Assembly (NCBI GenBank): GCA_963737265.1
Contig: CAVTRY010000015.1
Location: forward strand, 32,001-96,000
Length of the DNA stretch: 64,000 bases
Source of the DNA: an uncultured delta proteobacterium
Lineage (GTDB): Bacteria; Myxococcota_A; Polyangia; Fen-1088
Reading direction: 5' to 3'
The stretch's first letter is position 1. The number at the start of each line of letters is the position of its first letter. A model generated the notes under the pieces. It ran no database searches and was not told where the DNA came from. It worked only from the letters and a program-made list of their open reading frames with translations. The position numbers and the translations under genes were made by a program. Shown here one piece after another: positions 7,272 through 42,823 of the stretch.

Positions 7272-7756
7272 GCTCCTCGCCGACATCGACAAGACCGCGC
7301 GGCTGGCGCGTGCGCACGGTATCGACCGCCGCGGCTGGCGTGGCGCTGGTGATTTCCGTTGCGGTCCTGGGCGCCGGGAAATCCCAGAATGAAAATCCGT
7401 CGTCCGACAGCTCGGCCACTTCGGCCAAGCCGGACACCGTCCACATCTATATCCAAACCGTCCCGCCGCGCAAAGCCTCGGTCAAATGGGGTCAGAAGAA
7501 CCTGGGCGTGATCCCAGCGCCCCGCCCGCTCGTGGTCGAGCGGCCGCGCGACAGCGGCCCGCTCGATGTGGTGATTCGCGCCAGTGGCTTTCTGCCCGTG
7601 CACACGCGCGCCTATACCTTTTCCGACTCGCGTATCTCGGTGAAGCTGACGCCTCCGACGGAAAAGAACACCTTGTTCGGCTACCGCCAAGAAACCCCGC
7701 CGAACGCCCCGCCGAACCCCGACGGCGGCGTGGCCGAGCCGCCGAAAGCGCAATGA
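7268..7756 (+). CDS. Hypothetical exported protein (PEGA-like beta domain)
   Basis: N-terminal hydrophobic segment; QTVPPRKASVKWG and VVIRASGF resemble PEGA; ATGA overlap with the upstream gene. Confidence 0.6.
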   Translation: MSSSPTSTRPRGWRVRTVSTAAAGVALVISVAVLGAGKSQNENPSSDSSATSAKPDTVHIYIQTVPPRKASVKWGQKNLGVIPAPRPLVVERPRDSGPLDVVIRASGFLPVHTRAYTFSDSRISVKLTPPTEKNTLFGYRQETPPNAPPNPDGGVAEPPKAQ

Positions 7757-7788
7757 GAAGGCGCCTGCTGCTGCCCCATCCAATTGAC
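7661..7788 (+). repeat. Left copy of junction duplication 1 (3' end of 7268-7756 plus decayed 3' end of the convergent GH5 gene)
   Basis: AACACCTTGTTCGGCTACCGCCAAGAAACCCCGCCG...GCCTGCTGCTGCCCCATCCAATTGAC recurs with few changes at 10685-10818. Confidence 0.9.
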
Positions 7789-7965
7789 CAGCCCTTTACA
7801 AGGTGATGCAGGAACATTTGCTCACCTTCGAGCAAGAGGGACCGACGTCGCCATACACACTTTTCCGAGCGCCTTCGATTCGCCTACCCGTCGTAGCCAG
7901 AGATTGGCGCTAGGGTGTGCTCAGCAGAGAATGGTGTCGTCGGTCTTCGAGCTGGTCTCGCCATG

Positions 7966-8784
7966 CTACAGGCAGCACCCCGGCGGAGGCGGTGGGAGTG
8001 GAGCCGTTCCCCAGCAGACGAAGTTGCCGTCGGTCTTCAATCCGCACTCTGAAGCGCCCGCATGGATAGACGTGAATGTGTCTTCCGGTGGAATATCGTA
8101 GCCGCGGCCCCCGCAGGCTACGGTACCATCCGTCTTCAGTCCGCATACAGAATCACCAGCACTAACGGAAGTGAAAGTACCGGCGGGCGGAATCACGTAG
8201 TTGTCGCCCCAACAGGCTATGGTGCCGTCCGTCCTCAACCCGCAAGCGCAAAAAGCACTTCCGAGGGAACGTGGCACTACTTTCTTCTCCAAGATCGTCG
8301 TTCTGGTGAGCCAAAGTGCAATCATCACCGGTAAGTTGACGACGAGAGCCCAGCCTCGGATACGCTCGAATGCGAAAGTCACCAACGTAAAGCTGTCAGC
8401 GTAAAAGCCCGATGTCCAGAGTCGGTCTGCGCCAGACACAGCGAGACCGCATAGACCCAGCATCGTATGTCGATACTGGAACCCTGGTACACGTACGCTG
8501 ACCAGTTGTGGCGCAAACACAAGATAGCAAACTGGCCAGCTCAGCCTCTTGCGCCGCGCGAGTCGAAATCCGGCGTATCCAGTCAGAACAGCAAGCGTCG
8601 CAAACAGACTCATCAATCCAAGCGTGGCTCCTGCAGCCGCAACTGTTCCCTCTATCCTCGCTTTCGGAAGGGCGCGCACCGCTTCAACCAGTGGCGGAAG
8701 AACGAAGCTGGTCGTGACAACGCTTCCCAATATGAGTGTTGGTCCTATGGACACAGCAAGAAAGAGAGCCTTGTCTAGCTTCAC
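7966..8784 (-). pseudogene. Chimeric ORF: membrane-protein fragment joined to RCC1/BLIP-II-like repeats
   Basis: Three CGLxTDGxxxCxG / FTSxxAG repeats at the C-terminus after a hydrophobic N-terminal part. Confidence 0.55.
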
Positions 8785-9214
8785 GATTCTCCGTAGCGAT
8801 GGCTCGGATCATTGTCCACGCTATGAACACGCGCGGCGGTATCCCGCCGAGCAGCCAGACCATGGCTCGATTTTTAGGCTGCTGGTTTGCATAGGTCATC
8901 ATGGCGGCAACCACGACAATCCCCAGAAGACCCATGATCAATCTCGCGACAATCGGCTTCGTAAGACCAGCCCCCGTCCCTCTTGCTAGGAACATGCCGG
9001 GCGTCATCGTCATCGCGACGCCCCTGGTCACGGCTTGTTTCCGGGTTCCCCGCAGCGCATCCGCAACTACGTCCATTCTACCGCTTTCGACGCCGATCGC
9101 CTCTTCGATTTCCCAGAGCTCAGTTCCCCCTGGATTCTTCTCGTCCCCCTCAACGCCCTTGATCATTTCGATGATTCTCACCGCATCATCTAGCAGGTAC
9201 TGCGTCTCATTCAT
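8684..9214 (-). CDS. Hypothetical membrane protein, possibly continuing by frameshift into 7966-8784
   Basis: GGTGAG RBS before the ATG; hydrophobic segments; 100-bp overlap with the next ORF. Confidence 0.4.
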   Translation of the reverse strand: MNETQYLLDDAVRIIEMIKGVEGDEKNPGGTELWEIEEAIGVESGRMDVVADALRGTRKQAVTRGVAMTMTPGMFLARGTGAGLTKPIVARLIMGLLGIVVVAAMMTYANQQPKNRAMVWLLGGIPPRVFIAWTMIRAIATENREARQGSLSCCVHRTNTHIGKRCHDQLRSSATG

Positions 9215-9221
9215 GGCTCAC

Positions 9222-10235
9222 CTATTGGATCGGCACACCCTGAGAGGCTAGATCTGCCAACCCATCTCCGTTCACATCGAGGACTTGACTCGTGGCATAT
9301 CCACCCCCGCATGTGGTTCCGGAGTTATCCACCTCAGCAGTCTGTGTTCCGATGGAAACCGTTCCTTGTCCATTGCTCTGACTTAGAGCGACTCCAGTCG
9401 CAAATGTTCCGTCGGGATTGGCAGTCTGGACGGTCACCAAGGTCCTTTGAACGGGGTCGGGGGTAGTGCCGATACCAACGCCCCGGCAGCTGTTCCCCAT
9501 CTGGAGCAAGTCCGCTCTACCATCTCCGTCGAAGTCGACAATCCGAAGACCGGGGTCTCGCGGTTTGCCGTTGCCATTGAGCACATCCAGCGACTGGCCC
9601 ATCTTATCCGTCGACTGCTGGAAGATTGGGATGGGCGGCAAAAAGCCTCGGCCGCTATTTTTCCACACACGGATACTGGGCGGAGGGTTGAGCGGATTTG
9701 TGGTGCTAGCACTCCCATTGATAGGAATCTCGATGGCATCTGGCAGGCCGTCGCCGTTCACGTCCGCAAACTGATATCTCACCGAGCCCGGTGTCTTGTT
9801 GCTGGAGAGAAGGCTCGTTAGGGCCGTTGAGACTGCACCACCATTCGGGCCACTGAAAAGCGCCCGCATGTGGTTCGACGGCGGGCTCGGGGTTATAGTT
9901 CCGGAATCCCAGGAAACGATTGCGACTTTGCCATCCCCGTTGATATCGGCGAGATAGGAATTCCACGGCTGGGTCAGGTCATATGCTCCAATAAATTTCC
10001 AGGAGCTGGCGGATGAGCCGAAGCCGTTTGAGGAGTTTGGCAAATAGTACCAAAGTGGCGAATGGTTGAGTGAGAACTGAATTGGCTTTATGAGGTCGGG
10101 CAGTCCATCGCCGTCAAAATCGCCAACCATCGGTAACACCGCTTTTCCCTGAAGAACCAAGTTGTCGGTCGGCGCTGGCCCAATGGAGTTTCCTGAGGTG
10201 CCGTCCGCACACCAGTTTGCCGCACAGAGCTCCAA
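9222..10235 (-). pseudogene. Internal fragment of an FG-GAP/VCBS-repeat protein (SpvB/TcdB-Rhs toxin-like)
   Basis: Five GDFDGDG/DVNGDGLxD-type motifs; no signal peptide and no Rhs core, so truncated at both ends. Confidence 0.65.
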
Positions 10236-10684
10236 AGACGGCGGTCAACGAGCGCGACCAGCAGGTGTCGCGCGGTTGGGCGTGGGTCGACCGCGTGGCT
10301 GGCAGCCTCGGCGTGCTGGCAAGCACGGATCAGGTGCTGGACACGGCGCTGATTGCGGCCAAACCCACCGACGATGCCGAGCTGGAGGCGGGCATTCGCG
10401 CGCTTGCAACCATCTAATATGGAAACCCTGAGAGGGTTTCCATGCCTTCCCGCGAATGGTGCGCCGCCAGCAAAGCTGGCGGGCTCCCCACGCGACCTGA
10501 ACGAAAGCAAGTCGCGGCTGCCGCCGGATGCCGAGGCGGACAAGCGCCTGGCCGAGGTCGATGCCCTGCGTACGTCCCTGCAAACATCGCCCGGTACGGT
10601 GCACACGTCCAAGGGCCAGACCCTGGCGGACACGGTGCAGATCGATCTCTACGACGGCACGCTCTACGCAAGCAGGCGCGACCT
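10236..10684 (+). pseudogene. Broken fragment(s) of an unknown helical protein
   Basis: Coding-like ORFs 10217-10417 and 10353-10778 are interrupted and run into the repeat. Confidence 0.3.
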
Positions 10685-10818
10685 GAAAAACACCTTGTTC
10701 GGCTACCGCCAAGAAACCCCGCCGAGCGCCCCGCCGAACCGCGACGGCGGCGTGGCCGAACCGCCGAAAGCGCATTGAGAAAGGCGATCTGAGCCTGCTA
10801 CTGTCCCATCCAGTTGAC
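10685..10818 (+). repeat. Right copy of junction duplication 1
   Basis: Matches 7661-7788; re-encodes KNTLFGYRQETPP...AEPPKA and contains the live GH5 stop. Confidence 0.9.
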
Positions 10819-12060
10819 GACGAACTGTCCGTGCCCGCCCTGGATTGCAGTCCCTGATACAGGCAGAGTGCCCGGGTAAGACGCCCCCGCCACGTCGCTG
10901 CTGAGCGTGTTGCTCGGCCAGGGCCCGTCGAGCGAGGCGTTCCCGCCAAGGATGCAGCTCGCGTCCGCGCACTGGTCGAGCTTCCAGGCCACGCCGCTGA
11001 TGTTGTTCTGCGACATCCACGCGAACCAGAGGTTGGCCTCGTCCGCGCAGACGTAGTTGTGATTTTGGGCGAGTCCCCCGTCGGAGAAGGTGGCGCCGAA
11101 TTCGGTCACGAACAGGGCGATGCCACCCGCGATGGCCTTGTCGCCCAGGCTGCGGAACGATTGTCCGTGTGTGCACGAATACCAGTGCAGGGTGTAGAGC
11201 AAGTTGGTGCCAACCACCGGATCCGCGGCCGCCTGATCGACCCGCTGAGACCATTGCGGCGTACCTAGGACCATCAGATTGTCCGAACCCGCGGCGCGAA
11301 CCGCGTCGACCACTGCCTGGTGATAGGCCTTGATCTGCGGCCAGGTGGGGCCGGCCGGTTCGTTGTACGGCTCCCAGATTACATTCGGGTAGGCACCGTA
11401 CTTGGTCGCCATTTCGGTGAAGAAAGCGACGGCGGCCGTCTGCTGATTCACCTGCGGATCCGCCGCCGCCGCCACCTCGGTGTGCCAGTCGACCAGCACG
11501 TAGACGCCGAGCTCGATGGCGTTTTGGATCACGGCCTCGACCTTACTGTTCATGCCGACGGGATCGGTCAGATATCCCCCCGATTGCTCGGTGCCCATGG
11601 ACGCGCGAATCACCGAGAGATTCCAGTGGTCGCGCATGTACTTGAGTGCATTCTTGCTTTCGGCGAAGGGCAGGCTCTCCCACGCGAGCCACATGCTGCT
11701 GGCGCCCTTGAGCTGGAAGGGCGTTCCATTCTGGTCCACGAGCTGGCTGCGCACGATCGGACTTGCCGCATCGGCGGCCGGACTTCCGCCGTCTACCGCC
11801 GGAGTTCCGCCGTCCGCCGCCGGACCTTCCCCGCCAGCGAGAGGATTTTCGCCTGCATCGACCGTCGGAGTGGTCACCACCGTCGCGACCACGCTCAGCC
11901 GACCATGGATAGCCACCGGAGATCCTACCGGAGCGCTTCCCGCATCGGGGCCCTGCCAGTTATCCGAGGGATTATCCGAGGAAGGAGTGCTGGCGCACCC
12001 GATGGACAAGCAGAGCGCTGCGGAAACGACTAAAGACATCGAACTACTACGACTTCGCAT
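10798..12060 (-). CDS. Glycoside hydrolase family 5 (cellulase-like) lipoprotein
   Basis: Lipobox SIGC; VLVDWH, WEPYNEP acid/base, YTLHWY, FVTEFG nucleophile. Confidence 0.9.
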   Translation of the reverse strand: MRSRSSSMSLVVSAALCLSIGCASTPSSDNPSDNWQGPDAGSAPVGSPVAIHGRLSVVATVVTTPTVDAGENPLAGGEGPAADGGTPAVDGGSPAADAASPIVRSQLVDQNGTPFQLKGASSMWLAWESLPFAESKNALKYMRDHWNLSVIRASMGTEQSGGYLTDPVGMNSKVEAVIQNAIELGVYVLVDWHTEVAAAADPQVNQQTAAVAFFTEMATKYGAYPNVIWEPYNEPAGPTWPQIKAYHQAVVDAVRAAGSDNLMVLGTPQWSQRVDQAAADPVVGTNLLYTLHWYSCTHGQSFRSLGDKAIAGGIALFVTEFGATFSDGGLAQNHNYVCADEANLWFAWMSQNNISGVAWKLDQCADASCILGGNASLDGPWPSNTLSSDVAGASYPGTLPVSGTAIQGGHGQFVVNWMGQ

Positions 12061-12445
12061 CACGATCCTCTCGGGTTGTGTTCGAAAAAATGGACTGCCC
12101 CGGAGTACGCAGGGACTTGGCGGAAGAACCCGGATAGAAGGCAAAATGGGCATGCGCACCGACGCAAAATTCCGATGTAGCCAGCGCCGACAGTCGGTGC
12201 GGCGTAGGTGCGTCGAGCAGGATCCATTCCGGCCCCTGGCCCCGTTTCGCCGCGCACCCGAGCCACACCCATGTGGTGCGCACATACGTATGAATGGTCG
12301 GCAGTAGTGCGGCCGATCTTGAGGCCCGCTTCCACGGACGCACCGAATCGGCCATGATGGTCTCGTCCTTGGAATCTCGCGTCCAATTCCAGAATCGCCG
12401 GATTGCCTTCGCCGAATATGGCGATCCGGTCGGCCTCCGCTTTCT

Positions 12446-13253
12446 CTAGCCCGCGCGTTCTTCGAGAAAGCCGAGCACTCTCTCGACAAACATTCCCGGC
12501 CCCGTGGACATAGCGGCGTGGCCCTGCCCGTGCAGTTCTTCGATGCGGCTGCCTGCCACGGCGGCGCTGGCCATCTTGGTTGCAGCGTGCATGTAGTCGG
12601 GGCTGATGCTGCCGACGAGGAAGAGCGTGGGCACACGGACATGGGCGAAGGTCTCGGCGGCAAAGCGGTAGGTGTTGGCGATGCCGACTTCGCGCGGGAT
12701 GGTGGGCGCGGCCTGCACGCGCACGGGCCAGCTCGACGAACGGCGCAGGCGCTCGAACGTCGCTGTCGTCCAGCCGAATCACCTCGCGCAGAAAGCCCTC
12801 GACCACGGCTTCGTGCTTGCCGGCGGCGAGCAGGGCCTGCAGGCGGTGCGCGAGATCGGCGGCGAAGATCAAGCCCCGACCGGGCAACGGCAAGGGCGGC
12901 TCGTAGAGAACCATTTTGGCGATGCGGGTGGTAAGGCGCGAAGCCTCCAGCGAGCAGATGGCGCCGTAGGAGTGGGCCAGGACGCACGCAGGTTCCGGCG
13001 TCGCATCGAGTACGGCGGCCACGTCCTCGAATTCCCTTTCGATGGCATACGCGGGACCATCGCCACTTTTGCCGCGTCCGCGCCTGTCGACCAGGTACAG
13101 CGAAAAGCGCTCGGCCAGCCTAGTCACGATGGTGCCCCAGCGGGTGTGATCGAGGGTGGTACCGTGCACCATCACGAGCGGCTGCCCGTGGCCCCGCCGT
13201 TCGAAGGCGATGCGGGTTCCGTCCTTGGATTTGACCGTTTCGATGAGGCGCAT
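12446..13253 (-). CDS. Alpha/beta hydrolase, +1 frameshift near 12756
   Basis: SKDGTRIA, VHG, DRRGRGKS and AHSYG nucleophile in one frame; GQGH catalytic His in ORF 12446-12724. Confidence 0.8.
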
Positions 13254-13635
13254 GCGAATCTAGCAGCCCGTGGTGAAAGTCGGACCGAGCCGTTCGGAGT
13301 GGATCTGGGCCGGATGCAAGGAGCAGCGAAGCGCTGAATACTAGAGGTATTCAAGCGAACGGCGACGCAGCAGACGGCCCAAATCCGCCCGAACGGCGAC
13401 GTGGAGACTTTTACCACGGGCTGCTAGATGGCGTGCTAAGTACAGCTTCCCGCAATTTCGTGCCCATCTGGTCGCGGATCCATCCCGCCGGGCCGCGTTT
13501 CTCGTCGTCGTAATACGTCGGGTATTCCTCCTCCTCGCGCCTCGCCAGCCGGGCGCCTCGGCCGCCTCGGCACCCGACTCGTGGCATCTACTCTCTGACG
13601 AGCGCTAAGGTAGCGCGCGTTTACGTCCATGATCC
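13233..13635 (+). repeat. Left, interrupted copy of junction duplication 2 (pieces 13233-13257, 13429-13440, 13604-13635)
   Basis: GACCGTTTCGATGAGGCGCATGCGA, TGGCGTGCTAAG and GCTAAGGT..TTACGTCC.ATGATCC recur contiguously at 22617-22687. Confidence 0.75.
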
Positions 13636-13648
13636 GCCACGGAGATAT

Positions 13649-14659
13649 CTATTCCGAAATCCGCACCAACTGCTTGCCCCGATTCTCGCCCGAGAACAGC
13701 CTAGCCAGGGCGGCCGGCGCATTTTCGAAGCCCTGAACCACATCGACGCGATCCTTGATCCGACCCTCGGCAAACCACGCCGCTAGCGCAGCGGTTGCTT
13801 CGTTGGCGCGGGTCATGTAGTCCGTGACCACGAAGCCCTCCATCCGACCTCTGCGAGTGAGGAGACGAAGATAGGCCTTGGGCCCAGGCGCTGGTGCATC
13901 TAGGTTGTAGGTAGAGATGGCGCCACAGATCACGATCCGGCCGCGCATGGCGAGGTTGCCTAAAGCCGCGTCGAGAGCGGCGCCGCCGACGTTGTCGAAA
14001 AACACGTCGACACCCTTTGGACAGGTCAGGCGCAGGCGGGTGAGCAGGTTCTCATTCTTGTAGTCGATGGCGGCGTCGAAGCCTAGCTCGTCGGTGAGGT
14101 AGCGACACTTTTCGGCGGACCCGGCGAGGCCCACGACACGGCAGCCCAGAAGCTTGGCGATCTGGCCAACCACCGAGCCGGTCGCCCCGGCGGCGCCCGA
14201 CACCAGCACGGTCTCTCCCGCCTTGGCCTGGCCGATGTCGAGTAAACCAAAATAGGCGGTCATGCCGGTGAGGCCGAGCACGCTCATGCCGTTTTCCAGG
14301 GGAATTCCATCGGGGATGGCATTCATGAACGTGGTCTGCCCAGGCCGAACGCAGGCGTAGTCCTGCCAGCCGAAAATCCCCTGTACGCGTTGACCCACGG
14401 GAAAACCCGGGTCGAGGGAGCGGACGACCTCGCCTCCGGCAATGCCGCGCATGACCTCGCCAATGGGCACCGCCGGCAGGTATGTGTCATAGGCCATCCA
14501 GCCGCGCTGGGTGGGGTCGCAGGATAGAAGATCAATGCGTACGAGGACTTCCCCGTCGGCGACTTCGGGGATAGGGGACTCGGTAAGTCGGAAATCGGCG
14601 GGGCATACCAATCCATTGGGCCGCCGGGAAAGTCGCCATTGTCGGTTCGTAATTCGCAT
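13649..14659 (-). CDS. NADP-dependent oxidoreductase (MDR; prostaglandin/alkenal reductase, CurA-like)
   Basis: SCDPTQRGWM, GMTAYFGL, SGAAGATGS, FFDNVGG, CGAIS, GENRGK. Confidence 0.9.
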   Translation of the reverse strand: MRITNRQWRLSRRPNGLVCPADFRLTESPIPEVADGEVLVRIDLLSCDPTQRGWMAYDTYLPAVPIGEVMRGIAGGEVVRSLDPGFPVGQRVQGIFGWQDYACVRPGQTTFMNAIPDGIPLENGMSVLGLTGMTAYFGLLDIGQAKAGETVLVSGAAGATGSVVGQIAKLLGCRVVGLAGSAEKCRYLTDELGFDAAIDYKNENLLTRLRLTCPKGVDVFFDNVGGAALDAALGNLAMRGRIVICGAISTYNLDAPAPGPKAYLRLLTRRGRMEGFVVTDYMTRANEATAALAAWFAEGRIKDRVDVVQGFENAPAALARLFSGENRGKQLVRISE

Positions 14660-14716
14660 CGATTTTTCCTGAATCGCTCAAGCGGGCCCGCACATCCAGC
14701 GGGGCGAGAGTCAATC

Positions 14717-14825
14717 TAGCCAGGCGGAGTTTGCTGGCCACACTTGCCTTTCCCGTAGTCGAATGCAATAATCAGTTTAGCCGAGTGGAGTTTGCTTGGC
14801 CACTTTGCCTTTTTTCTAATCGAAT
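14717..14825. repeat. Imperfect ~48-bp tandem repeat (61-bp period) in the divergent promoter region of the cluster
   Basis: TAGCC..GGAGTTTGC(T)TGGCCAC..TTGCCTTT..TA.TCGAAT at 14717-14764 and 14778-14825. Confidence 0.7.
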
Positions 14826-14833
14826 AGACCTTC

Positions 14834-15994
14834 ATGACAGAATCAAACGGTTTCGACCTCAGCCCCGCCCAACGCGAGCGCGTGGATGCGGTCCTTCGCT
14901 TCGCTCGAAGTCGCCTTTCACCGGGTGCTCGCGAACGAGAAGCCAAGAGTGTATTCGAACGAGGTCTGTGGACCGAGGCTGCCGACTTTGGCTTGACCGG
15001 ATTGCCCGTCCCCGAGGAATGGGGTGGGGGCGGCCTGGACGCCGTGGACACGATGTTGGTGATTGAGGCCCTGGGCCGCGGCTGCGAAGACGGTGGCCTG
15101 GTGTTCTCGCTTTGTGCGCACATGTTCGCTTCGGTGGTGCCCATTTGGCGATCTGGTGCGAAGGAGCTGCACGAACGCTATCTGAGCGATCTGGCGGCGG
15201 GGAAAATCATTTGCGCCAACGGTACCAGCGAGCCCGAGGCCGGCTCGGATGTGCACGCCATGAAGGCCACTGCCCGTCGCGACGGCAATGGCTATGTCCT
15301 CGATGGCACCAAGTGTTTCATCACCAACGCGCCGGTTGCCGACCTATTTTTGATCTACGCAAAGACCAACCCAGCAGCCGGATTCATGGGGATTTCCGCC
15401 TTTCTCGTTCCGCGGGCAAGCCAAGGTCTTCGCGTCGTTCCCGAACATGGCAAGAACGGCCTGCGCACATCGCCGTGGGGCACGATCTACCTTGAGGAAT
15501 GCCGCGTGCGCGAGGGCGACCGGATGGGTCCCGAGGGCTGCGGGGCTGCCCTGTTCGGTGAGTCGATGGTGTGGGAGCGTTGCTGCCTGTTCGCCTACTA
15601 CGTCGGCGCCATGGCGCGCAGCCTCGACCAATGCATCGATCATGTGCGCTCGCGCCAGCAATTCGGTCATCGCATCGCCAGCTACCAGTCCGTCGCGAAC
15701 CGCATCGTGGACATGAAGCTGCGGCTCGAAACGAGTCGCCTCCTGCTTTACCGTGCCGGCGAGCTGCACCGCCTGGGCAGGCGCTGCGACGAAGCCGTGG
15801 CCATGTGCAAGTTGTGGATCTCCGAGGCGGCCGTTCAGTCGGGGTTGGACGCCATCCAGATCTTCGGCGGCTCGGGCGTGGTGACCGATACGGGGGTCGA
15901 CGCGCTGCTGCGCGATGCCGTGCCGGCGCAGATCTTCTCGGGCACCTCGGAGATGCAGCGGATGATTATCGCGCGAGCGCTGGGCGTCTTCTGA
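14834..15994 (+). CDS. Acyl-CoA dehydrogenase family; probable L-prolyl-S-PCP dehydrogenase (PltE/RedW/PigA-like)
   Basis: SEPEAGSD, GTKCFITNAP, RQQFG, QIFGGSG, IFSGTSEMQR; translationally coupled to a Pro-type A domain. Confidence 0.8.
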   Translation: MTESNGFDLSPAQRERVDAVLRFARSRLSPGAREREAKSVFERGLWTEAADFGLTGLPVPEEWGGGGLDAVDTMLVIEALGRGCEDGGLVFSLCAHMFASVVPIWRSGAKELHERYLSDLAAGKIICANGTSEPEAGSDVHAMKATARRDGNGYVLDGTKCFITNAPVADLFLIYAKTNPAAGFMGISAFLVPRASQGLRVVPEHGKNGLRTSPWGTIYLEECRVREGDRMGPEGCGAALFGESMVWERCCLFAYYVGAMARSLDQCIDHVRSRQQFGHRIASYQSVANRIVDMKLRLETSRLLLYRAGELHRLGRRCDEAVAMCKLWISEAAVQSGLDAIQIFGGSGVVTDTGVDALLRDAVPAQIFSGTSEMQRMIIARALGVF

Positions 15995-17574: not shown

Positions 17575-17587
17575 TAAGGAGTTAGCA

Positions 17588-17839: not shown

Positions 17840-17855
17840 TCAGGAGGAAATTACC

Positions 17856-32156: not shown

Positions 32157-32240
32157 ATCGTCGCTATTTCTTCTTTGCGTTATTCGTTGGCGTAGCGCTC
32201 GTGGCGGGGCTCGTCGGCTTTTTCCCGTCGGGCTTCGTGA
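31705..32240 (+). repeat. Left copy of junction duplication 3 (dnaJ 3' part plus dead 3' end of the convergent slt gene)
   Basis: 31705-31794 matches 42574-42663 and 32084-32240 matches 42667-42823. Confidence 0.9.
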
Positions 32241-32310
32241 ATCAGCCCGCGCGATCCGCGCACGAGCTGGATATGGACTTTAGGTGCCGCATGGCCTTTA
32301 ACGCCGCCCG

Positions 32311-32625: not shown

Positions 32626-32760
32626 CTGGCTCCCTGCTCCGGCTTGAGTAACCGATGAAACCTGCCGATTCTCGCGATCCGCGGCGCCAACCGGTTATTC
32701 GCGCGCCGGTCGGCGCCGCCGTCAGGAAGGGCACGGGACCTGCAAAGGAGAACGGGCGAG

Positions 32761-33646: not shown

Positions 33647-33655
33647 GGTCAGGCG

Positions 33656-34189: not shown

Positions 34190-34220
34190 AGAACTGTCCA
34201 AAAATTGGACAGTTCTTCAG
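34186..34220. terminator. Perfect 16-bp inverted repeat (hairpin or operator)
   Basis: CTGAAGAACTGTCCAA-AAA-TTGGACAGTTCTTCAG. Confidence 0.6.
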
Positions 34221-34611
34221 CAGCCGAGCCAAGGGCTCGGCCGCAGGTGGGGTGAAGTCCGCGAATTTACTTCGCGGACGAGGGGAGGGCAGCGGCCCTC
34301 CCTTCAAAAATCTTCAAGACGGGTCCATTTATGGACACGTCTTGACCCCTAACACGTTCGGCCCGACTACCGAACAGGGGGCGCGGCTGTCGGCCGGCGA
34401 CTGTCCAGCCGCACCCTGGAAATGGCGGCCATGGTGGTGGGCCTGGCGGCGACGGCCTCGCCAATCCTCGGTCGGCGGTAAGCGACCGGCACAGGCGCTC
34501 GAAGTCGGCGCCGCGGCACGCGGTCCGCGTTTGCCCATCGTGCGTAGCGGTCGGGATTTGTACAAGCGGGCTTCAACAACGGCCCTGTCCTGGGTTAGTC
34601 TGCTTTGGCCC

Positions 34612-36153
34612 ATGTCTGATGACGAATCTCTAACGCTGTCCCGGTCAAAGTCATCGAGAATTTCTGCCCGGTTTGTTGGTGCGACCACAAAACGCACGCG
34701 CAACGGAGACCTTCGGTGGGTTGCTCAGGCTACCATCAACGGGGCTCACCTCGTATTTGGGACCTGGGCCACCGCCAAAGAGGCGGCCATCGCCTTTGAT
34801 CGGGCAGTGCTCTACTACCGAGGGCCAGAAGCGCCACGCAATTTCCCTGAACGGCGGGACTTGCTTCCCGCCGACGCCAAGCAACTACTGGAAGAAGCCC
34901 ATCGCGCCGCCAAGAAGAGACTGGAGATCCCCTACGACGGCGTCAGTAGAGCCAACGGGGAGCACTGGATCGCCAAACTGCGCGTGGATGGCCTGCCGAG
35001 GTTGCTGGGAACCTGGCCAACCGCGGAAGCCGCGGCCATCGCGTACGATCGAGCAGTCCTGACCTACTACGGCAAGACGGCTCGGCGGAACTTTCCCGAG
35101 CGGCGGCTCAAGCCCGCAGATATCGAGCAATTGCAGGCCGAGGCTCAGCAAGCGAGGGGAGTGCGCGCCAAGAGTGGGTATCTCGGTGTCTCCCCTACGC
35201 GGAGTGGGCCGAACAAGTCCTGGAAGGCTACCATTCGAATCGAGGGTAAGTACGAGCGGCTGGGTATTTGGGCTAGCGCCAAGGAAGCGGCCGAGGCCTA
35301 CGATCGAGCCGTGCTCGCGGTTCGCGGGAAAAAGGCTGCTCGGAACTTTCCCGAACGACGATTGCACCCAACCGACGCCGCGCAACTGCGGGCAGAAGCT
35401 CATCATTTGAACAGGTCTCGTATGAGCAGCCAACACTATGGTGTTGGCCTTACGATGGGTGGCTGGAAGGCGATGATCGGAAGTCACTTCCTCGGAAATT
35501 GGCAGAGCGAGGAAAAGGCAGCCGAGGCATGTGACCGAGCCATGCTGTTCTTAGGTGTCCCCACGGAGAAGCTGAACTTCCCGTCTCGTCCTCCTGTACC
35601 GGCCAGCCCATCGGATCTACGGCTGGAGGCTCGTCAAGACAGAAAGAGATGCAGCAATGCCTACACCAGTCACTATCTTGGCGTGTCCTACAACCCCGCC
35701 AATGGGGAGCGTTCATGGCAGGCGACGCTGTGGCGCGGTGGCAAGCAGCGGAACCTGGGCCATTGGAAAAGTGAAGCTGACGCGGCAAGGGTGCATGACC
35801 GAGCCGTCCGCTACTTCATGCCGGGAAAACTGCCTCTCAACTTTCCCGACGAAGACAATCCGCCAGCGAACGCGGCCACTCTTCGCGCCGAGGCCTTTCG
35901 CGAAGGCAGGGCTAGATACAGCTCCTCTTTTCGCGGGGTGCACTATGAAGAAGCAAATCGATGCTGGATAGCAACGATTACCCATCGCTATTCGCACATC
36001 TGGCTTGGGCGATTTGCCAACGAACACAAAGCTGCCCTTGCCTTCGATAAGAAGGCCATCGAGCTACGCGGTCCGGAAGCGCGTCTCAACTTCGACCCGC
36101 GGACAGGCAAGCGGATCTGGGGACAGCGAGTGCGCGAACTGAGGAGCCGCTGA
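34612..36153 (+). CDS. Protein made of six tandem AP2/ERF-like DNA-binding domains
   Basis: Six YxGV...WxA...LGxW/F...EAAxAYDRA...NFP units, each followed by a PADxxxLRxEA-like linker; no nuclease or integrase domain seen. Confidence 0.85.
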   Translation: MSDDESLTLSRSKSSRISARFVGATTKRTRNGDLRWVAQATINGAHLVFGTWATAKEAAIAFDRAVLYYRGPEAPRNFPERRDLLPADAKQLLEEAHRAAKKRLEIPYDGVSRANGEHWIAKLRVDGLPRLLGTWPTAEAAAIAYDRAVLTYYGKTARRNFPERRLKPADIEQLQAEAQQARGVRAKSGYLGVSPTRSGPNKSWKATIRIEGKYERLGIWASAKEAAEAYDRAVLAVRGKKAARNFPERRLHPTDAAQLRAEAHHLNRSRMSSQHYGVGLTMGGWKAMIGSHFLGNWQSEEKAAEACDRAMLFLGVPTEKLNFPSRPPVPASPSDLRLEARQDRKRCSNAYTSHYLGVSYNPANGERSWQATLWRGGKQRNLGHWKSEADAARVHDRAVRYFMPGKLPLNFPDEDNPPANAATLRAEAFREGRARYSSSFRGVHYEEANRCWIATITHRYSHIWLGRFANEHKAALAFDKKAIELRGPEARLNFDPRTGKRIWGQRVRELRSR

Positions 36154-36254
36154 GCATTCGGCTCATAGTTGCCGGCGGCTAAGCCCGCCGCTCCGGCGAA
36201 GAAAAAGAAGTGAACGCTCGCGGCCCAACAACTTCATCTGAAAGGACTTTACGC

Positions 36255-36548
36255 ATGAGTAATGGAACCGCCGCCTTTGTCATCGTTGCTGCAATCGGGT
36301 TCGCCTGCTCCCACCTGCAACAGAAGCCACCGACCGTCGCGCCACAGCAGGCGCCCGCTCCGAGACGGACTGCCGCGAGCACGTCCCCGACCACTGTGGC
36401 GAACGGCAGCTCTGCATCCGATCTCGATGCGTCGACATCAGGCCCGGTCTCCCCGAGTGCAGTACGGCGCGCATCCATTTCGATTTCAACCAAGCTGACA
36501 TCCACCCGGACGAGACAGCGAAACTCCAGCGCATGGGACGTTGTTTGA
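36255..36548 (+). pseudogene. Short lipoprotein-like ORF or fragment
   Basis: AAGGA RBS, lipobox GFAC, low-complexity tail. Confidence 0.3.
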
Positions 36549-36991
36549 AGGCCGACCATGCGCTTCACGTTACTATTGAGGGCAACGCACACGAGCGGGA
36601 ACCGAGGACTGGAACCTCGCACTCGGCGACGTGCCGAAGAGCCCGAGGATAATGACCAACCCGGTTGCGGCGCGGATAAGGCGCTCAGCAAGCAGCACCG
36701 GCCGAAGATCGGACTGAAAGCGGTCGTTGATAATTGCCTGGGTGTCAACACTGGCCGCTACCCCGAAAAGCAGAAGGGTCGAGGAAACGGTTAGCCAGGA
36801 ATGGGTTCTGCCAGAGTGACTTTCTGATTGCATGCTCGAAACGCGGCAGCAAGCGACGTGCCACGGTCAGAACATGGGTCGGAGTCGAGATCGCCAGCCT
36901 TCACACCGAGGCAATTCGCCACGCGTGGCAAGTTGTCACGTGGCGACCGGCGAGATTCCGAGTTTTCGCGGTCGTTTCCATGCGGAGAGGG

Positions 36992-37007
36992 TGGCATACG
37001 CCTTGCT
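36992..37007 (+). promoter_or_regulatory. Sigma54 (-24/-12) promoter upstream of the two-component operon
   Basis: TGGCAT-ACGCC-TTGCT with exact GG-N10-GC spacing. Confidence 0.75.
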
Positions 37008-37175
37008 GACTGGGGTGCTCATGCGTTCGAGATTCGATTGCCCGCCAGTCATCGGATTGGGGGCGTCTCGAACGCCGGAATCAACTGCCCTCGAACTTCC
37101 CCATCCATCGCGGCCTCTTTTTCGCGTCGGCATCTTTCCACGTCGGGCACATCATCCGGGTAGGATGGCCGGGCC

Positions 37176-38687
37176 ATGAAACTCGCGGCCAAGCTAACCG
37201 CCTTCATCCTGGCCGCCATGCTTTTGGTTTTCGCCGTGCGCGGCTATCAGGCCGCGCGCCGGCAGATGGTGAACGCCGAGACCAGGGCGCGTGAGAACTC
37301 GCTCTTGCTTGGACGCGCGTTGCGCCCGGCCCTGGCCGAAATTTGGAGCCAGGAGGGGCCGGCGTTGGCCTTGGAAATGCTCTCCTATGCGGCGGATCGC
37401 GTGCGCCGAACCCAACAGCTCGATTTGCGTTTCGTGCGCACCTCCTCTGGCAAGGGGACCGGGGTACAGCCGCTTGTGCGCCCAGAGCAGCTGGCAGGTC
37501 TCGATGTGGACGACGAGCGGGTTTTTGTCGAGAAAGTGGCCGGGAATGAGACCCTGCTCACCTACTTGCCCGTGGTCGTTGGCAATCAGCAAGTGGGCGC
37601 GCTGGAGGTTTCTGGCCCGCTCACCGAGCGTGACAACGAGTTTCGGGCCGAGATCATGCAAATCTTGGGGCGCACTGCACTGGCGGCACTGGCTGCCTTC
37701 ATTGCTGTTGGGGTTGCTGGTATCTTCTTCGTGGGGCGCCCCATGCGATTGCTCGTGGCCAAGGCGAGACGGATAGGTGCCGGGGATCTTTCCCAGCCTC
37801 TTGAGCTCAAGCAAAGAGACGAGGTCGGCGAGCTTGCGGCCGAAATCAATCAGATGTGCGAGCGGCTGGCGGCGGCCCAGGCGCGGGTCGAAGAGGAAAC
37901 CAACCAACGAATAGCGACGGCCGAGCAGCTTCGCCACGCCGATCGGTTGACCACGGTTGGTAAGTTGGCTTCGGGTGTGGCGCACGAGCTGGGCACGCCT
38001 CTCAACGTGGTTTCCGGCCGCGCCAAGATGATCACGCGCGGCCAGGTCACGGGCGCCGAGCTGGTCGAAAGCGCACAAGCCATTGTCGACCAAGCCGACC
38101 GCATGACCAACATCATCAAGCAACTGCTGGGATTCGCCCGACGACGCCAACCCCAACGTCGGAAAGAGAGCCTTCGGGGCGTGGTGGATCGTACCCTGGC
38201 GCTGCTCCACCCGATGGCGCAAAAGTCGGATCTATTGCTTTCAAAACCAATCACAGCCGAACCAGAACCCTTCGCAGAGATCGACGTTGGTCTCATCGAG
38301 CAAGCCCTGACCAACCTGGTCGTCAACGCCATTCAGGCCATGCCCAAAGGCGGCGTCCTCACCATTCACTCCTGCGAAGAGGTTGTCTCGCCGCCCGTGG
38401 GCGTGCCCGCCACCGCAGGCGGGTATGCTTGCCTACATGTCGAGGACACTGGCGGCGGCATGACCAGCGAGCAGCTTCGCCATGCCTTCGAGCCCTTCTT
38501 CACTACCAAAGAAGTGGGCAGCGGGACTGGCCTCGGACTTTCGGTCGCCCACGGTATCGTTCGCGATCACGGCGGCTGGATCGCCGCGACCAGCGCGGTA
38601 GACAAGGGAAGCCGCTTCTCGATGTATCTGCCCTCGATTCACAAACCGGAAACACCTAATGAACAAGTCGATTCTGATCGTGGATGA
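37176..38687 (+). CDS. HAMP-domain sensor histidine kinase
   Basis: Two TM segments, HAMP, AHELGTPLN, NLVVNA, DTGGG, FFTTK, GTGLGL. Confidence 0.95.
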   Translation: MKLAAKLTAFILAAMLLVFAVRGYQAARRQMVNAETRARENSLLLGRALRPALAEIWSQEGPALALEMLSYAADRVRRTQQLDLRFVRTSSGKGTGVQPLVRPEQLAGLDVDDERVFVEKVAGNETLLTYLPVVVGNQQVGALEVSGPLTERDNEFRAEIMQILGRTALAALAAFIAVGVAGIFFVGRPMRLLVAKARRIGAGDLSQPLELKQRDEVGELAAEINQMCERLAAAQARVEEETNQRIATAEQLRHADRLTTVGKLASGVAHELGTPLNVVSGRAKMITRGQVTGAELVESAQAIVDQADRMTNIIKQLLGFARRRQPQRRKESLRGVVDRTLALLHPMAQKSDLLLSKPITAEPEPFAEIDVGLIEQALTNLVVNAIQAMPKGGVLTIHSCEEVVSPPVGVPATAGGYACLHVEDTGGGMTSEQLRHAFEPFFTTKEVGSGTGLGLSVAHGIVRDHGGWIAATSAVDKGSRFSMYLPSIHKPETPNEQVDSDRG

Positions 38688-40021
38688 CGACGCGGCCCTG
38701 TGCCGGCTGGTCGTCGATGGCCTCGGTCGCGAGGGATTCGAGGTGCGCAGCGCGACCTCGCCCGAGGAGGCTCTGGCCGCCATGGCGAGCGGCGATTTCG
38801 ATGCGGCGTTGGTCGACATCAACATGCCCCAGATGAACGGATTGGACTTGAGTCGCCGCCTCTTGGATCAGCGGCCGGACTTGCCCATCGTCGTCATCAC
38901 GGCGTTCGGCTGCCTGGAGACGGCTATCGCCGCCATCCGCGCCGGGGCATACGATTTCGTCACCAAGCCATTCGAGATCGAACAGCTCGTGGTGGCAGCC
39001 GACCGCGCCTGCCAGACCCACAAGCTTCGCGAGGAGGTCCGCCGGTTGCGCGAGGTGGTGATGTCTCCGCCGCCGTTCGCCGACATCCTCGGCGAATCGG
39101 CCGAAATTCGCCGGCTGTGCCACGTCATCGACGCCGTCGCGCAAACGGATTCCACGGTGTTGGTGACGGGCGAAAGCGGCACGGGCAAAGAGCTCGTGGC
39201 CCGTGCCCTGCACGAACGCGGTCCGCGCAAGGCGGGGCCATTCGTGGCCATGAACTGCGCGGCCATGACCGACACGTTGCTCGAGAGCGAGCTCTTCGGC
39301 CATGCCCGTGGCGCTTTTACGGATGCCAAGGACACCCGCGTCGGTCTCTTCGTGAAGGCGGGCACGGGAACACTTTTCCTCGACGAGATCGGCGACATGC
39401 CCGCGGGCATGCAAGCCAAAATGCTGCGCGCCCTCGAAACGCGCATGGTGCGCCCGGTGGGCAGCGACAGCGAAGTTCCCTTTCGGGCCCGGATTGTCGC
39501 CGCCACCAACCGGGATCTGGAGAGCGAAGTCGAAGACGGGCATTTCAGGCAAGACCTATACTTTCGGGTCAACGTCATCCGCATCCCGGTCCCGTCTTTG
39601 CGTTCGCGCGGGGGTGACATCTTGATCCTGGCGCAAAACTTCGCGCTCAAGTTGGCCAAGCGTCTAGACAAGAAGGTAACCGGCATTTCTGTGCCTGCGG
39701 CGGAGCGGTTGCTCGCGTACCCATGGCCAGGCAACGTGCGCGAGCTTCAGAACGCCATCGAGCGCTCCGTGGCAATGACACGTTTTGAGGTGATCGTCGT
39801 CGAGGATTTGCCCGAGACCGTGCGCAGCTACCGACGATCGCCCCTGCTACCATCGGGCGAGGACACCTCCGACTTCTTGCCCATGCACGAGGTCGAAAAG
39901 CGCTACATCCTGCGGGTTCTCGATGCCAGTGGCTGGAAACAAGACTTCCGCCGCGCAGATCCTAGGTTTCGATCGCCGCACCATGTATCGCAAGCTAGAG
40001 CGTTTCGACAAAAGCAAGTAG
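38659..40021 (+). CDS. NtrC-family sigma54 response regulator, +1 frameshift near 39934 in the HTH
   Basis: REC (IVDDD, DINMP), [22 protein letters not shown]; restored frame gives GNKTSAAQILGFDRRTMYRKL. Confidence 0.9.
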
Positions 40022-40699
40022 TCGCACTTTGGCAGTCCCTCTCGCAGGCCTCGCGCGATAATCTCGCCAGGGGCCGAATGTTCGCATGCTCCAGTGATGG
40101 CCTCGAACATGGCTCCTGCGATCAGTACAAGCTGCCAGCAGCCGTTTCCGTCCGACGCGCCACGGTGCCCGGCGCGCTGCATTGCGCTGGGTCCATCTCG
40201 TCGCGTGCGTCGGTCGGGCCTGCGTGGGCGATGAACAAGTGGTCGGCTTGGCGTAGACGGCGAGGTGTGCGAAGTCGCCCAGGCCGGCGATCTTGTTGCG
40301 AACAATCGGCGCCAACGGGTGAGGCGTGTCGCGCGTAGATCGCTCGCAGACCGGCCCATGCCTTTTGTTTCCGGTTTGGTCATGCTGCTTTCGCCTCCTG
40401 GCTAGTCGCCTGCGTGACAAAGCAACTGAACGTCCAGCACAACGGCTTTTTGTTACGCATGTTCCAGCGCGCGCCAAATGTCATATGTGTGCCGCAAGCT
40501 CGTGGTCGAGCGGAAACTCTTGCGTCGCAAGCAGCGGCGTCAAAGCACCCGGAAGTGTGACTCTATCTGATTGACCCACGAGGCGTGTAGTGGAGGTGGA
40601 AGCGCCCGCCGTGGCGCTAGTTGAATTGCTACCAGCGCTCACCTTTTTTGGATGTTGAGACTGTCGAGCGTGCTGTGGGTATCACCTAATGGGTTATCG

Positions 40700-40990
40700 C
40701 GCGGCCACCGCGACCATGTGCCGTTCTATGTACCCCCTTCCGCGTAGGGCTGCATGCGGCAACGACCTCGCCGGTCTCCACGTTGACCGTCGACAGCAGC
40801 GACTGCGTGCCGTGACGGATGGATGTACTCGAACTTCTGGAGCGCCAGGCGCCCGGGGTAAGAAGGCCGGTCGGGGTGGGTGCCTGCGCTCAAGACCGCC
40901 TGCATGCCCGGCTTCTCGTCGAAGCTCACCACGATGCTGCCTGGTGGCGGCTGATCGAGGCAGCCGGGCCGCGCCCAAGCATGCGTTCTG
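40700..40990 (-). mobile_element. IS630-family transposase remnant
   Basis: PPPGSIVVSFDEKPGMQA, LERRHP and FEY fragments across shifted frames. Confidence 0.7.
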
Positions 40991-41144
40991 CGCCAGCTCG
41001 GAAGGCGACGAAGGTGCGGTAGCGGATGCAAAAGTGCATAGCGGTCGAATCGTCAGTGGCGTGGGACGATTGGGGCTGGGCGGCAATAGGTGGTTGCGGG
41101 ACAACATAGTGCTCGCCGAACCTCTCGCAGAGATCGGCGAGACA

Positions 41145-41696
41145 TCAGAAGGATCCGTGCAGAACCGTGCCCATGAAACCCGGGCTGGTGGCGGGAAGAA
41201 GCGTCAGCGACGACGCGGCTTTGTGATTTTGCCTATATGCCAAGTAGTAGAGGAACGCGCCGCCTGCCAGGCAGGCCGTGCCGACGCCATAGCCGACCCA
41301 GGCGAAGGTTACGTAGGTCGGTCGCGTAGACGCTTCACCCTGGTGAAATGTTGGTGAAGTCTGCAGATCGCTGGCCAAGCTGTTGGCTTTCAAATTCAGG
41401 AGTATGCCCGTGGTGATGCTGGCCACGCCCACGGCCGTGGCCACGATGGTCCCGGTGCGCATCCCGGAGCGAGACGTAGCAGGCGCTGCGGACATGGTTT
41501 GGCCAGCCTGTGTCGGTTGCGCAGGCGCCGCGGTCGTTGGCTGCGCGGAGGGCATCGCCGGGTTCGAAGTTTCCGCGGTTGCCTTCTGGGTTCCGAGCAC
41601 GAATAGCAGGGCAAGTGCAAGAAATCGCACGATGTAGCGAGGCACAGGTAGCGCCAGTGCGCGCGCTGGTCGGTTCGGCCAGCAGAATGAATGCAT
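41145..41696 (-). CDS. Hypothetical exported/membrane protein resembling the C-terminal module of 60626-61413
   Basis: Signal peptide, Pro/Ala linker, VGYGVG...LY hydrophobic hairpin, C-terminal GSF. Confidence 0.6.
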   Translation of the reverse strand: MHSFCWPNRPARALALPVPRYIVRFLALALLFVLGTQKATAETSNPAMPSAQPTTAAPAQPTQAGQTMSAAPATSRSGMRTGTIVATAVGVASITTGILLNLKANSLASDLQTSPTFHQGEASTRPTYVTFAWVGYGVGTACLAGGAFLYYLAYRQNHKAASSLTLLPATSPGFMGTVLHGSF

Positions 41697-42059
41697 GACA
41701 GCAGTTTCTCCTCAAAAACAGTCGGAAGGCAAGAAGTACCTTTCGTCTTTCGTACACCCAACCCTGCTGTGTGTGCAGACCTTTCGCACAAACACGTACG
41801 CAAGAGCGGCATGCCCAATATCATTGAGGTTTTGGCTGGCCAGGTGAGCTATGAGGGGTGATGCTTTGGCAATGCTTGACACCTCCCCGACCGCCTCACT
41901 GACGCGCTGCGCGTACGACCACCGTCTCTGGAATCAAGTCGTTGAAGATGCGCAGGACTTGGCCGAGTAATTGCCCATCGAAGGCCAACGGAAATCTCAG
42001 CGAGAAGGGCAGCGTAACTAGGGCCTGCCCGCCCTGCCCCTGCCCCACGCGGCTTCGCC

Positions 42060-42436
42060 GCGCCCGTCGCAAATTGTCGGATAGGCACTTCGGGCAGCAG
42101 GTGGTCGACCAGAGTCAGGGCGCCCGCGTTCATGCGTCTGCCGCCGCAGCTCGGACAGAATCCGCGACCTTTACAGGACCAAGCGACCGCATACCGCTCG
42201 TGGCAGGTCTTGCACAAAAGTTGTGCGAAGCCTCGCGCGAGGATTCCACGGCCTTGGAAGTCGTGTAGCTCGTCGGTGACGAAGCTGGGCAGCGTGCGGC
42301 CGTCGGACTTGTCGGTCCACTCTTGCTCGAAGGTCAGAAGGTGCTGCTGGAGCACCTGGAAAAGGGCAGTCTTTTCCGGCTCCCGGCGGGCATAGGTGTA
42401 ACCGGTCGCAGGTTTTGCGCATGCCGCTGCTTCCAC
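42060..42436 (-). mobile_element. IS91-family (rolling-circle) transposase remnant, zinc-binding N-terminus only
   Basis: YARREPEKTALFQV, GILARGFA, CKTC, SCKGRGFCPSCGGRRM, LPEVPIRQ; no HUH/Y2 domain follows. Confidence 0.8.
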
Positions 42437-42573
42437 GAAGGAGGATGTCGGTCAGCAGGTCGTGGAAGTTGCTTGCAGCCGGGGCCGGCTTCCACCCAGC
42501 GCGGGCGTCTCGGTGGATTTCTACTCGGCCGTCGTCAATCCGACCCTCCCCTCAACGGCAGCATCACGTCCGC

Positions 42574-42823
42574 CCGGCGTCGAAGACGGTTCGACCCTGC
42601 GGATGACCGGGCGGGGCGAGGCCGCGCCAGGCAACGGCCAGCCTGGCAACCTCTACGTCACTTAGCTGCCAGCGCGGGCGGCGACCAGATCGAGCCGCCC
42701 GGCGAGCGCAGCAGTTTCTGGCGCAAGAAGCGCAAGTAAATCGCCGCTATTTCTTCTTCGCGTTCTTCGTCGGCGTAGCGCTCTTGGCGGGGCTCGTCGG
42801 CTTCTTCCCGTCGGGCTTCGTGA
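42574..42823 (+). repeat. Right copy of junction duplication 3 (dead dnaJ 3' part with ~290-bp internal deletion plus live slt 3' end)
   Basis: Re-encodes [15 protein letters not shown] and [20 protein letters not shown]. Confidence 0.9.

Follow-up and report, generated by a model that had tools for sequence, protein, structure and literature searches.

A 64,000-nucleotide stretch of chromosome from an uncultured delta proteobacterium, a soil myxobacterium represented by a metagenome bin (G000:C15:32001-96000, hereafter the window), contains three islands, each of which is bracketed by a direct duplication of the junction between two neighboring genes. At one edge of every island, beside a repeat copy, lies a truncated relic of an IS91-family insertion sequence (IS). 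Relatives of the same genus hold two of the three sites without the island, and the cargo of one island includes a copy of a locus native to the same genome. We tentatively favor, at somewhat short of an even chance, the hypothesis that the islands are IS91-aided rolling-circle products that carried a captured junction fragment and were integrated by one homologous crossover.

The bin comprises 6.55 Mb in 25 contigs with a G+C content of ~64%, and its completeness and contamination are estimated at 99.5% and 7.6%, respectively. Repeats in the window were found by self-comparison and their boundaries were refined by alignment. The longest duplication, R3, encloses island 3 (32241-42568, 10.3 kb) and consists of the 3′ ends of two convergent genes, that is, 457 nt of dnaJ, a 7-nt spacer, and 77 nt of an SLT transglycosylase gene. 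Self-comparison paired 31705-31797 and 32084-32240 with the contiguous segment 42574-42823 (~95% identity, range 93-96%; E 6e-35 and 6e-67), and alignment extended the match to 31700-32240 versus 42569-42823, which indicates a duplication of originally 541 bp. The left copy (31700-32240) contains the 3′ end of the intact dnaJ (31047-32156), the spacer, and the 77-nt SLT fragment. The right copy (42569-42823), from which 286 bp have been deleted, contains a decayed dnaJ fragment that has gained a TAG stop, the spacer, and the genuine 3′ end of the SLT gene (42747-45275, minus strand).

R1 likewise represents the 3′ ends of two convergent genes, here gene A and a GH5 cellulase gene, and encloses island 1 (7789-10685, 2.9 kb). 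Its copies (7664-7788 and 10686-10818) are 88% identical over 133 columns (E 2e-41), with a core of 96 nt at 95%, and comprise the last 93 nt of gene A, a spacer, and the last 21 nt of the cellulase gene, whose stop lies at 10798. In the left copy the end of the intact gene A (7268-7756) and the spacer are followed by a 21-nt cellulase remnant in which the stop has become CAG, and in the right copy a 3′ fragment of gene A, fused into an open reading frame (ORF) at 10353-10778, precedes the spacer and the genuine cellulase 3′ end (gene at 10798-~12030, minus strand). We considered whether this ORF is a paralog of gene A and rejected the idea, because the two have only the last 30 residues in common, which points to a fusion. 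Within the same ORF, positions 10419-10495 belong to a ~75-nt dispersed repeat that also follows gene X in the relative G010 and forms tandem arrays, with a spacing of ~80-84 bp, on contigs C13, C14, and C21. That spacing suggested a tRNA array, a candidate that was rejected when ARAGORN and Rfam detected no RNA gene.

The third repeat, R2, is weaker than R1 and R3. It corresponds to the starts and the common upstream region of two divergent genes, an alpha/beta hydrolase gene and gene X, and encloses island 2 (13636-22616, 9 kb). The copies share 25 exact bases (13233-13257 and 22617-22641, E 4.5e-5) and short collinear patches, GGCGTGCTAAG and TTACGTCC(C)ATGATCC. On the left (13233-13635), R2 takes in the initial 7 codons of the hydrolase gene (12060-13253, minus strand), the region between the two divergent genes, and the opening codons of gene X; this copy is split by two small multicopy elements, one palindromic and 172 bp long (13258-13429) and the other of ~170 bp (~13441-13609). 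The right copy (22617-22690) holds a fragment of the hydrolase start together with the native upstream region and start of the core gene X (ATG at 22681). The reading of R2 as an interrupted duplication is supported because the relative G010 holds this junction once and uninterrupted. The 172-bp element, situated just upstream of the hydrolase start, can form a hairpin and has ~25 BLAST matches in the genome; it is probably a hairpin mini-element.

By self-comparison the three repeats do not match one another, and no third copy of any junction is present in the genome. No motif common to the repeat ends was noticed by eye, and each of the six island boundaries is unique sequence. The repeats have no fixed size, being ~71, 125-133, and 541 bp long in the window and 678 bp in a fourth case described below. 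Neither a tRNA or tmRNA gene (ARAGORN) nor any Rfam family was detected in the window, and domain scans with Pfam (45 ORFs) and NCBIfam (20 ORFs) found no integrase or recombinase.

Gene order was compared in five genomes of the genus (G001, G002, G008, G010, and G012), which share 75-80% DNA identity with the bin. In all five, dnaJ is directly followed by the SLT gene, and thus island 3 is an insertion. Gene A is directly followed by gene X in four of the five, and the order in G010 is A, hydrolase, X; the single, uninterrupted hydrolase/X junction of that genome represents the empty site for island 2. Given that A lies beside X in four relatives, the segment 7709-22617 consists of nested insertions between two core genes. 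The cellulase gene is located elsewhere in two of the five relatives and the hydrolase gene is present only in G010; both are themselves accessory insertions between A and X. The A/cellulase junction was found in none of the five. Two further differences in gene order concern the surroundings of these genes. First, panC and dnaJ are adjacent here (boundary at 30952-31047) and lie on different contigs or ~40 kb apart in the relatives. Second, the orientation of the A-X block with respect to dnaJ is the reverse of that in G010. Taken together, these differences point to a rearrangement breakpoint next to dnaJ.

The islands had been noticed from the letters of the window alone, and much of that original prediction stands. 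It described three brackets within 35 kb that each duplicate a gene-gene junction, which is clear for R1 and R3 and, for the weaker R2, is backed by the single copy in G010. It also stated that each copy preserves one gene whole, the left copy the left gene and the right copy the right gene, while the redundant halves decay, as the altered stop in R1 and the TAG stop and deletion in R3 show. Its further statements that the repeats are mutually unrelated, are not tRNA attachment (att) sites, and are not ordinary IS target duplications agree with the searches above, with the varied lengths of the repeats, and with the lack of such repeats at intact IS copies. As for sites lacking the insertion, relatives provide one for island 3 in five of five genomes and for island 2 in one of five. 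Former adjacency of the flanking genes is therefore upheld for dnaJ/SLT and for hydrolase/X, but not for A/cellulase.

The relics at the island edges belong to a family of rolling-circle elements of the HUH Y2 class. In ISCR and IS91 elements, according to passages of PMC13393415, PMC7707992, and PMC5737581, the transposase gene has terIS on its upstream side and oriIS on its downstream side, and copying starts at oriIS and may pass terIS. Sensitive BLAST with four IS queries detected only three significant IS91 fragments in the 64-kb window (the remaining matches have E >0.03). The relic in island 1 derives from a family that we call IS91-A (7791-7846, plus strand; IS positions 112-168, transposase residues ~23-41; 81% identity over 57 nt, E 7e-8). 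It begins 2 nt past the left copy of R1 and reads into the island, and its terIS side is gone, the element being 5′-truncated at IS position 112. What remains in island 2 is an interior segment of a variant IS91-A lineage (22542-22616, plus strand; 77% over 86 nt, E 1.5e-11; 87.5% over 48 nt), recognized by the ~60-bp insert of that lineage, and it ends exactly at the right copy of R2 (0 bp). Island 3 holds a larger 5′ fragment (41938-42480, minus strand) that covers IS positions 4-550 of the variant lineage at 90.5% identity. Its terIS-side (5′) end is intact, its gene reads into the island, and a unique spacer of 88 bp (42481-42568) separates the IS 5′ end from the right copy of R3; the ORF at 41849-42436 carries a Zn_Tnp_IS91 domain (PF14319, E 1e-10). 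Based on the genome-wide figures for 78 fragments, the chance that such a fragment lies within 100 bp of a random position is ~0.6%, and it is very unlikely that all three islands have an IS relic at a repeat edge by chance. The order repeat, IS from 5′ to 3′, cargo, repeat is found in islands 1 and 3 and in the fourth case (C15:138706-147908). The islands were originally described as integrase-free, and no integrase was indeed found by Pfam or NCBIfam, but they are not free of mobile genes, given the IS91 transposase fragment near a repeat in three of three.

Both families of these elements are multicopy in the genome. IS91-A is ~1743 bp long, and its full-length copies, three of the 13 copies read, encode a 501-aa protein with Zn_Tnp_IS91 (PF14319, E 5e-15) and Y2_Tnp (PF04986, E 7e-23) domains. 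The fragment encoded by ORF 41849-42436 has 28 tblastn matches, and a search at the DNA level returned the 78 fragments, 32.9 kb in total, many of which are solo 3′ ends. The second family member, IS91-B, is 1828 bp long and encodes a protein ~45% identical to that of IS91-A. In the four to five IS91-A copies compared, the 5′ end does not resemble the 3′ end, and the flanking DNA varies from copy to copy; four copies in the bin share ~200 bp of sequence upstream of their 5′ ends. The tetranucleotide GTTC/CTTG, given in a passage of PMC5737581 as the target adjoining oriIS, does not consistently follow the 3′ end at the four copy ends read. In a further relative, G021, a 5.2-kb duplicate consists of the IS and 3.8 kb of upstream DNA, that is, adjoining DNA was carried along. 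No long flanking duplication was found at the intact copies in the bin whose ends were read, and neither a unique flanking repeat of >=60 bp nor a junction duplication surrounds any of the 12 intact copies in an IS-rich 160 kb of G021. The duplication thus does not arise routinely when the element transposes. The twelve intact IS91-A copies of G021 lie in one orientation within 125 kb (G021:C9:7572-130900), and seven of them have in common a segment of 68 bp that is located 801 bp ahead of the 5′ end of the IS.

The cargo of island 3 is a patchwork of unknown ORFs, multicopy pieces, a kinase/regulator block, unknown DNA, and the IS91 fragment. The block (36629-40034, plus strand) encodes a histidine kinase and a sigma-54 response regulator and reproduces a locus native to this genome. 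That locus lies on contig C25, where its flanks are syntenic with G010:C7 and G001:C9, and is reduced to four pieces that are 95-98% identical to the copy in island 3. As C25 occurs only once in the bin, it is not the contig of a second strain. These findings show that the mobile DNA carried copied chromosomal DNA, of which the original has since decayed. The captured pair seems complete or nearly so and may have replaced the original. In a separate observation on the same contig, C25:40673-57616 is 88-94% identical to G010:C7, compared with 75-80% at dnaJ and A/X, and may reflect a recent exchange between the two lineages. The multicopy pieces of island 3 comprise a member of a multicopy gene family (34671-36141) and a 160-bp element (34185-34345) with at least 20 copies at 99-100% in the bin and copies at 85-97% in relatives, where it forms arrays with a spacing of ~87 bp in G002 and G008. 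Island 2 carries a lipid-type cluster of an oxidoreductase, an acyl-CoA dehydrogenase, an AMP-ligase, two carrier proteins, two ketosynthases, an SDR, and two acetyltransferases. Homologs of this cluster are found at other places in five of 12 genomes of the genus at 69-74% identity, and no native empty locus for it was identified in the bin. Island 1, with a G+C content of ~57% in 8001-10000, contains minus-strand gene fragments with FG-GAP matches and weak RCC1 and TcdB-midN matches.

The pattern also recurs outside the window. A whole-genome self-comparison for two-copy direct repeats of 50-1500 bp spaced 1-60 kb apart, into which R2 was too short to enter, yielded 37 pairs; many bracket <3 kb, and these are probably tandem paralogs. 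In the one clear further case, a 678-bp repeat with 97.8% identity between its copies (C15:138706-139383 and 147232-147908) comprises the 3′ end of a PBP2-RodA gene, a spacer, and the start of ykuD. Between the copies are 1156 bp, an intact IS91-B that reads away from the left copy with its 3′ end facing the cargo, a second IS, and 3.5 kb of cargo. As rodA lies beside ykuD in none of the five relatives, no empty site backs this fourth case. A possible fifth case is the pair C16:244090-245271 and 259366-259749, whose right copy has an internal deletion like that of R3 and which holds an IS91-B-like relic 1.8 kb inside. Additionally, an 89-bp two-copy repeat surrounds 18 kb on C18 (C18:278824-278912 and 297111-297199), and from 64 bp inside the left copy onward the sequence matches, at 89-99% identity, the DNA that flanks the IS copy on C8 past its oriIS end. 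This pair may be a further case.

Rolling-circle copying that starts at oriIS often runs past terIS, which brings adjoining chromosomal DNA along, and circles can form. For the islands, which we take to be old insertions, we hypothesize the following sequence of events. A circular or terminally redundant product would carry the IS, patchwork cargo, and a copied junction fragment, and a single Campbell-type crossover between this product and the resident junction would leave the fragment, IS, cargo, and fragment in that order, after which the IS and the redundant gene halves would decay. When the fragment includes both gene ends, each gene keeps one intact copy, whereas an internal fragment breaks the gene, and thus respect for gene boundaries is expected from selection. 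This bears on the earlier claim of a general acquisition route that never breaks a core gene. Single crossover of a junction-bearing circle is still the best model, but the route is probably not new, as it resembles that of ISCR elements; the junctions are indeed respected, but this is better read as survivorship, and the cellulase and hydrolase flanks are accessory. A broader proposal is that IS91 elements are a general capture-and-reinsert system in these myxobacteria, which would, in the manner of Helitrons, turn chromosomal segments into patchwork circles and reinsert them by homology via any captured junction, relocating working core genes (here the kinase/regulator pair) and nesting islands while inactivating none. 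We regard this extension as rather doubtful.

Several observations weigh against the hypothesis of capture and crossover. The relics of islands 1 and 2 measure only 57 and ~75 nt, and that of island 2 is an internal piece of opposite polarity, reading towards its repeat. No circle, oriIS, or complete IS survives in any of the three window islands, and no oriIS-like end was found at the far island edges by the BLAST search with four queries or by eye (at 32241 onward and before 10686). There is no IS relic at the native kinase locus on C25. Each junction fragment must first have been captured, yet the genome holds no third junction copy, and a circle carrying the 3.4 kb kinase locus should recombine there sooner than via a fragment of 541 bp. 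In the genome-wide count, Y2 transposase homology is present inside only three of the 37 pairs versus 1.06 expected (P 0.09); island 1, whose relic is too short to count in this test, would make four. Finally, the differences between repeat copies comprise 13 synonymous and 8 nonsynonymous changes, with 14 of 21 at third codon positions. This excess rejects pure neutral decay (P 0.002) and does not reject one copy decaying in place (P 0.09), and between the kinase block in the cargo and its native remnant five of 11 differences are at third positions. The codon-position test thus separates neither a foreign allele from decay in place nor, more generally, one model from another.

The need for prior capture would be removed if the duplication were made at insertion, by aberrant rolling-circle or break repair that attaches the two termini of the incoming DNA at target sites 70-680 bp from each other (through long staggered nicks or target-primed synthesis before strand transfer). 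The sharp repeat boundaries, the IS sequence 0-2 bp away from them in islands 1 and 2, and the single additional copy of each junction agree with such a process. Furthermore, the repeat copies differ by 2-12% and the cargo differs from the native remnant by 2-5%, which fits copies that were once identical in one genome. We nevertheless consider this explanation improbable, given that intact copies of the same IS lack long flanking repeats and that no motif common to the repeat ends was seen by eye. In addition, we know of no enzyme that cuts so far apart, and ISCR and IS91 elements are described, in a passage of PMC3575428, as making no target duplication.

It is also conceivable, at a low probability in our estimation, that the crossover is right and the IS91 relics are bystanders, the circles being plasmids or other excised DNA in which IS91 debris was common or to which it was added later. 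That all three relics of 64 kb lie <=88 bp from a repeat copy speaks against this, as does the state of the relics, since truncated internal IS pieces fused to a repeat are unlike the outcome of a later normal insertion. The fourth case, with an intact family member in the expected polarity, points the same way. Consistent with bystanders, on the other hand, are the abundance of IS91 fragments in the genome (78), the 34 of 37 repeat pairs without Y2 homology inside, and the tiny size of the relics in islands 1 and 2.

We give little credence to a two-step history in which a disruptive insertion into a gene end was followed by repair through homology-anchored illegitimate recombination with DNA of a related strain. 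Such a history would require two rare events per site, at three or four sites, and a viable intermediate with a broken dnaJ. The synonymous and third-position excess would be expected if one copy had been a working allele elsewhere, but, as noted, this bias also fits decay in place. Many integrative elements bring a replacement gene end and leave direct repeats, and in that respect the islands could have been produced by site-specific integration, through a lost or trans-acting tyrosine or serine recombinase and element-borne att sites replacing the gene ends; however, no integrase or tRNA was detected, the three repeats are unrelated in sequence, and at 71-678 bp the repeats are much longer than the identity usual for att sites, which makes this explanation very improbable. 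Equally remote is an assembly artefact in which joined strain variants gave false duplications, as the estimated contamination of the metagenome bin and a single groEL frameshift in the window (a sign that the consensus may hold errors) could suggest, because the copies differ by 2-12%, by indels, by the 286-bp deletion, and by two mobile-element insertions, all six boundaries are unique, the pattern recurs elsewhere on the contig, and relatives independently display the single-copy state. Soil-metagenome contigs from one study that cover window positions 30501-45500 are 150-600 bp long at ~3x depth, and no piece shown bridges a boundary between repeat and island, which says nothing either way. 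Within the limits of these thin data neither an empty-site joint nor a circle joint was listed, and an exact 35-nt scan of metagenome contigs with the dnaJ end gave 0 matches and thus no conspecific allele or empty site.

If the islands did arise by capture and crossover, they have counterparts among known systems. In passages of PMC3575428, ISCR1-linked integrons are described as a truncated 3′ conserved segment (3′-CS), ISCR1, a variable region, and a duplication of the 3′-CS, and this arrangement is explained by a rolling-circle circle and homologous recombination after Toleman et al., as summarized in part of PMC7707992. A circle of 11 kb with an IS91 element and cargo has been observed in Sphingobium, as reported in a passage of PMC5737581. 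The islands resemble ISCR1 complex class 1 integrons in the succession of a host segment, an IS reading away from it, non-native cargo, and a second, partial copy of the host segment, in the fusion of the IS to the host segment with loss of the terIS side (island 1), and in having neither an integrase-type site nor a short target duplication. The terIS side of the IS abuts the repeat, with the gene reading towards the cargo, in island 1, in island 3 (with its 88-bp spacer), and in the C15 case (with a 1156-bp spacer), and the arrangement in island 2 is the opposite. As for cargo beside oriIS, a trait of ISCR1, the intact IS91-B 3′ end faces the cargo in the C15 case; in the three window islands oriIS has been deleted. 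In contrast to the fixed 3′-CS anchor of ISCR1 integrons, the islands use at least three unrelated chromosomal gene-gene junctions. They also differ in their host, a soil myxobacterium, in their chromosomal setting, in a metabolic and regulatory cargo that includes the genome's own relocated two-component system and no resistance genes, and in their decayed IS copies, which have lost oriIS and of which one of three is reversed. On balance, and by analogy, the islands look like a chromosomal, multi-anchor variant of ISCR-type complex structures in a myxobacterium.

Other systems share fewer of these features. The elements are like IS91, IS801, and IS1294 in their transposase domains, conserved 3′ end, many solo 3′ ends, and upstream flank carried along, whereas classical one-ended IS91 transposition leaves no target duplication. 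The laboratory integration of suicide plasmids by a Campbell crossover duplicates the homology fragment around the insert and spares the genes only when a gene end lies within the fragment; its product is the same, but here the event is natural and the circle presumably made by a transposon. The islands depart both from integrase-type elements (phages, integrative and conjugative elements, and integrative mobilizable elements) and from ordinary fixed-length target duplications, having the hallmarks of neither. Helitrons, eukaryotic rolling-circle elements that capture gene fragments (PMC4778049 and PMC5876387), provide a parallel for a copied host patchwork beside a rolling-circle transposase. 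Unlike Helitrons, however, the present elements are bacterial Y2 elements without a helicase domain, and their integration seems to use host homology. Literature searches combining IS91 with myxobacteria and gene capture, or ISCR with Campbell or single crossover, returned nothing relevant, as far as those searches reach.

Two features of the window lie outside the islands. The groEL gene (27896-29564, minus strand), which follows groES (29605-29895), has its single frameshift near residue 320 and is either a pseudogene or the product of an error in the assembly consensus; a second groEL, 80% identical, is present on C14. The segment 59126-62541 contains tandem coding repeats with periods of 81 and 120 nt (59337-60012) and, at 61941-62313, a Gly/Ala/Ser-rich repeat with a period of 21 nt.

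The ISCR model of rolling-circle copying and recombination underlies much of the thinking on how complex resistance integrons are assembled, but it rests on one recurrent anchor, the 3′-CS, and has never been demonstrated. If confirmed, the islands described here would be independent natural replicates of that model, with at least three anchors, on a nonclinical chromosome, with the single-copy state preserved in relatives and with traceable cargo. Should the idea of a capture-and-reinsert system also prove true, they would form the first natural replicate set with several anchors for the ISCR1 model. As a practical matter, integrase-free islands with long flanking repeats ought to be checked for decayed IS91 or ISCR remnants. 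Confirmation would further imply that ordinary bacterial chromosomes are shaped by this mechanism, through the movement of core genes and the nesting of islands at a single hot spot, and would account for the respect that such islands show to gene boundaries.

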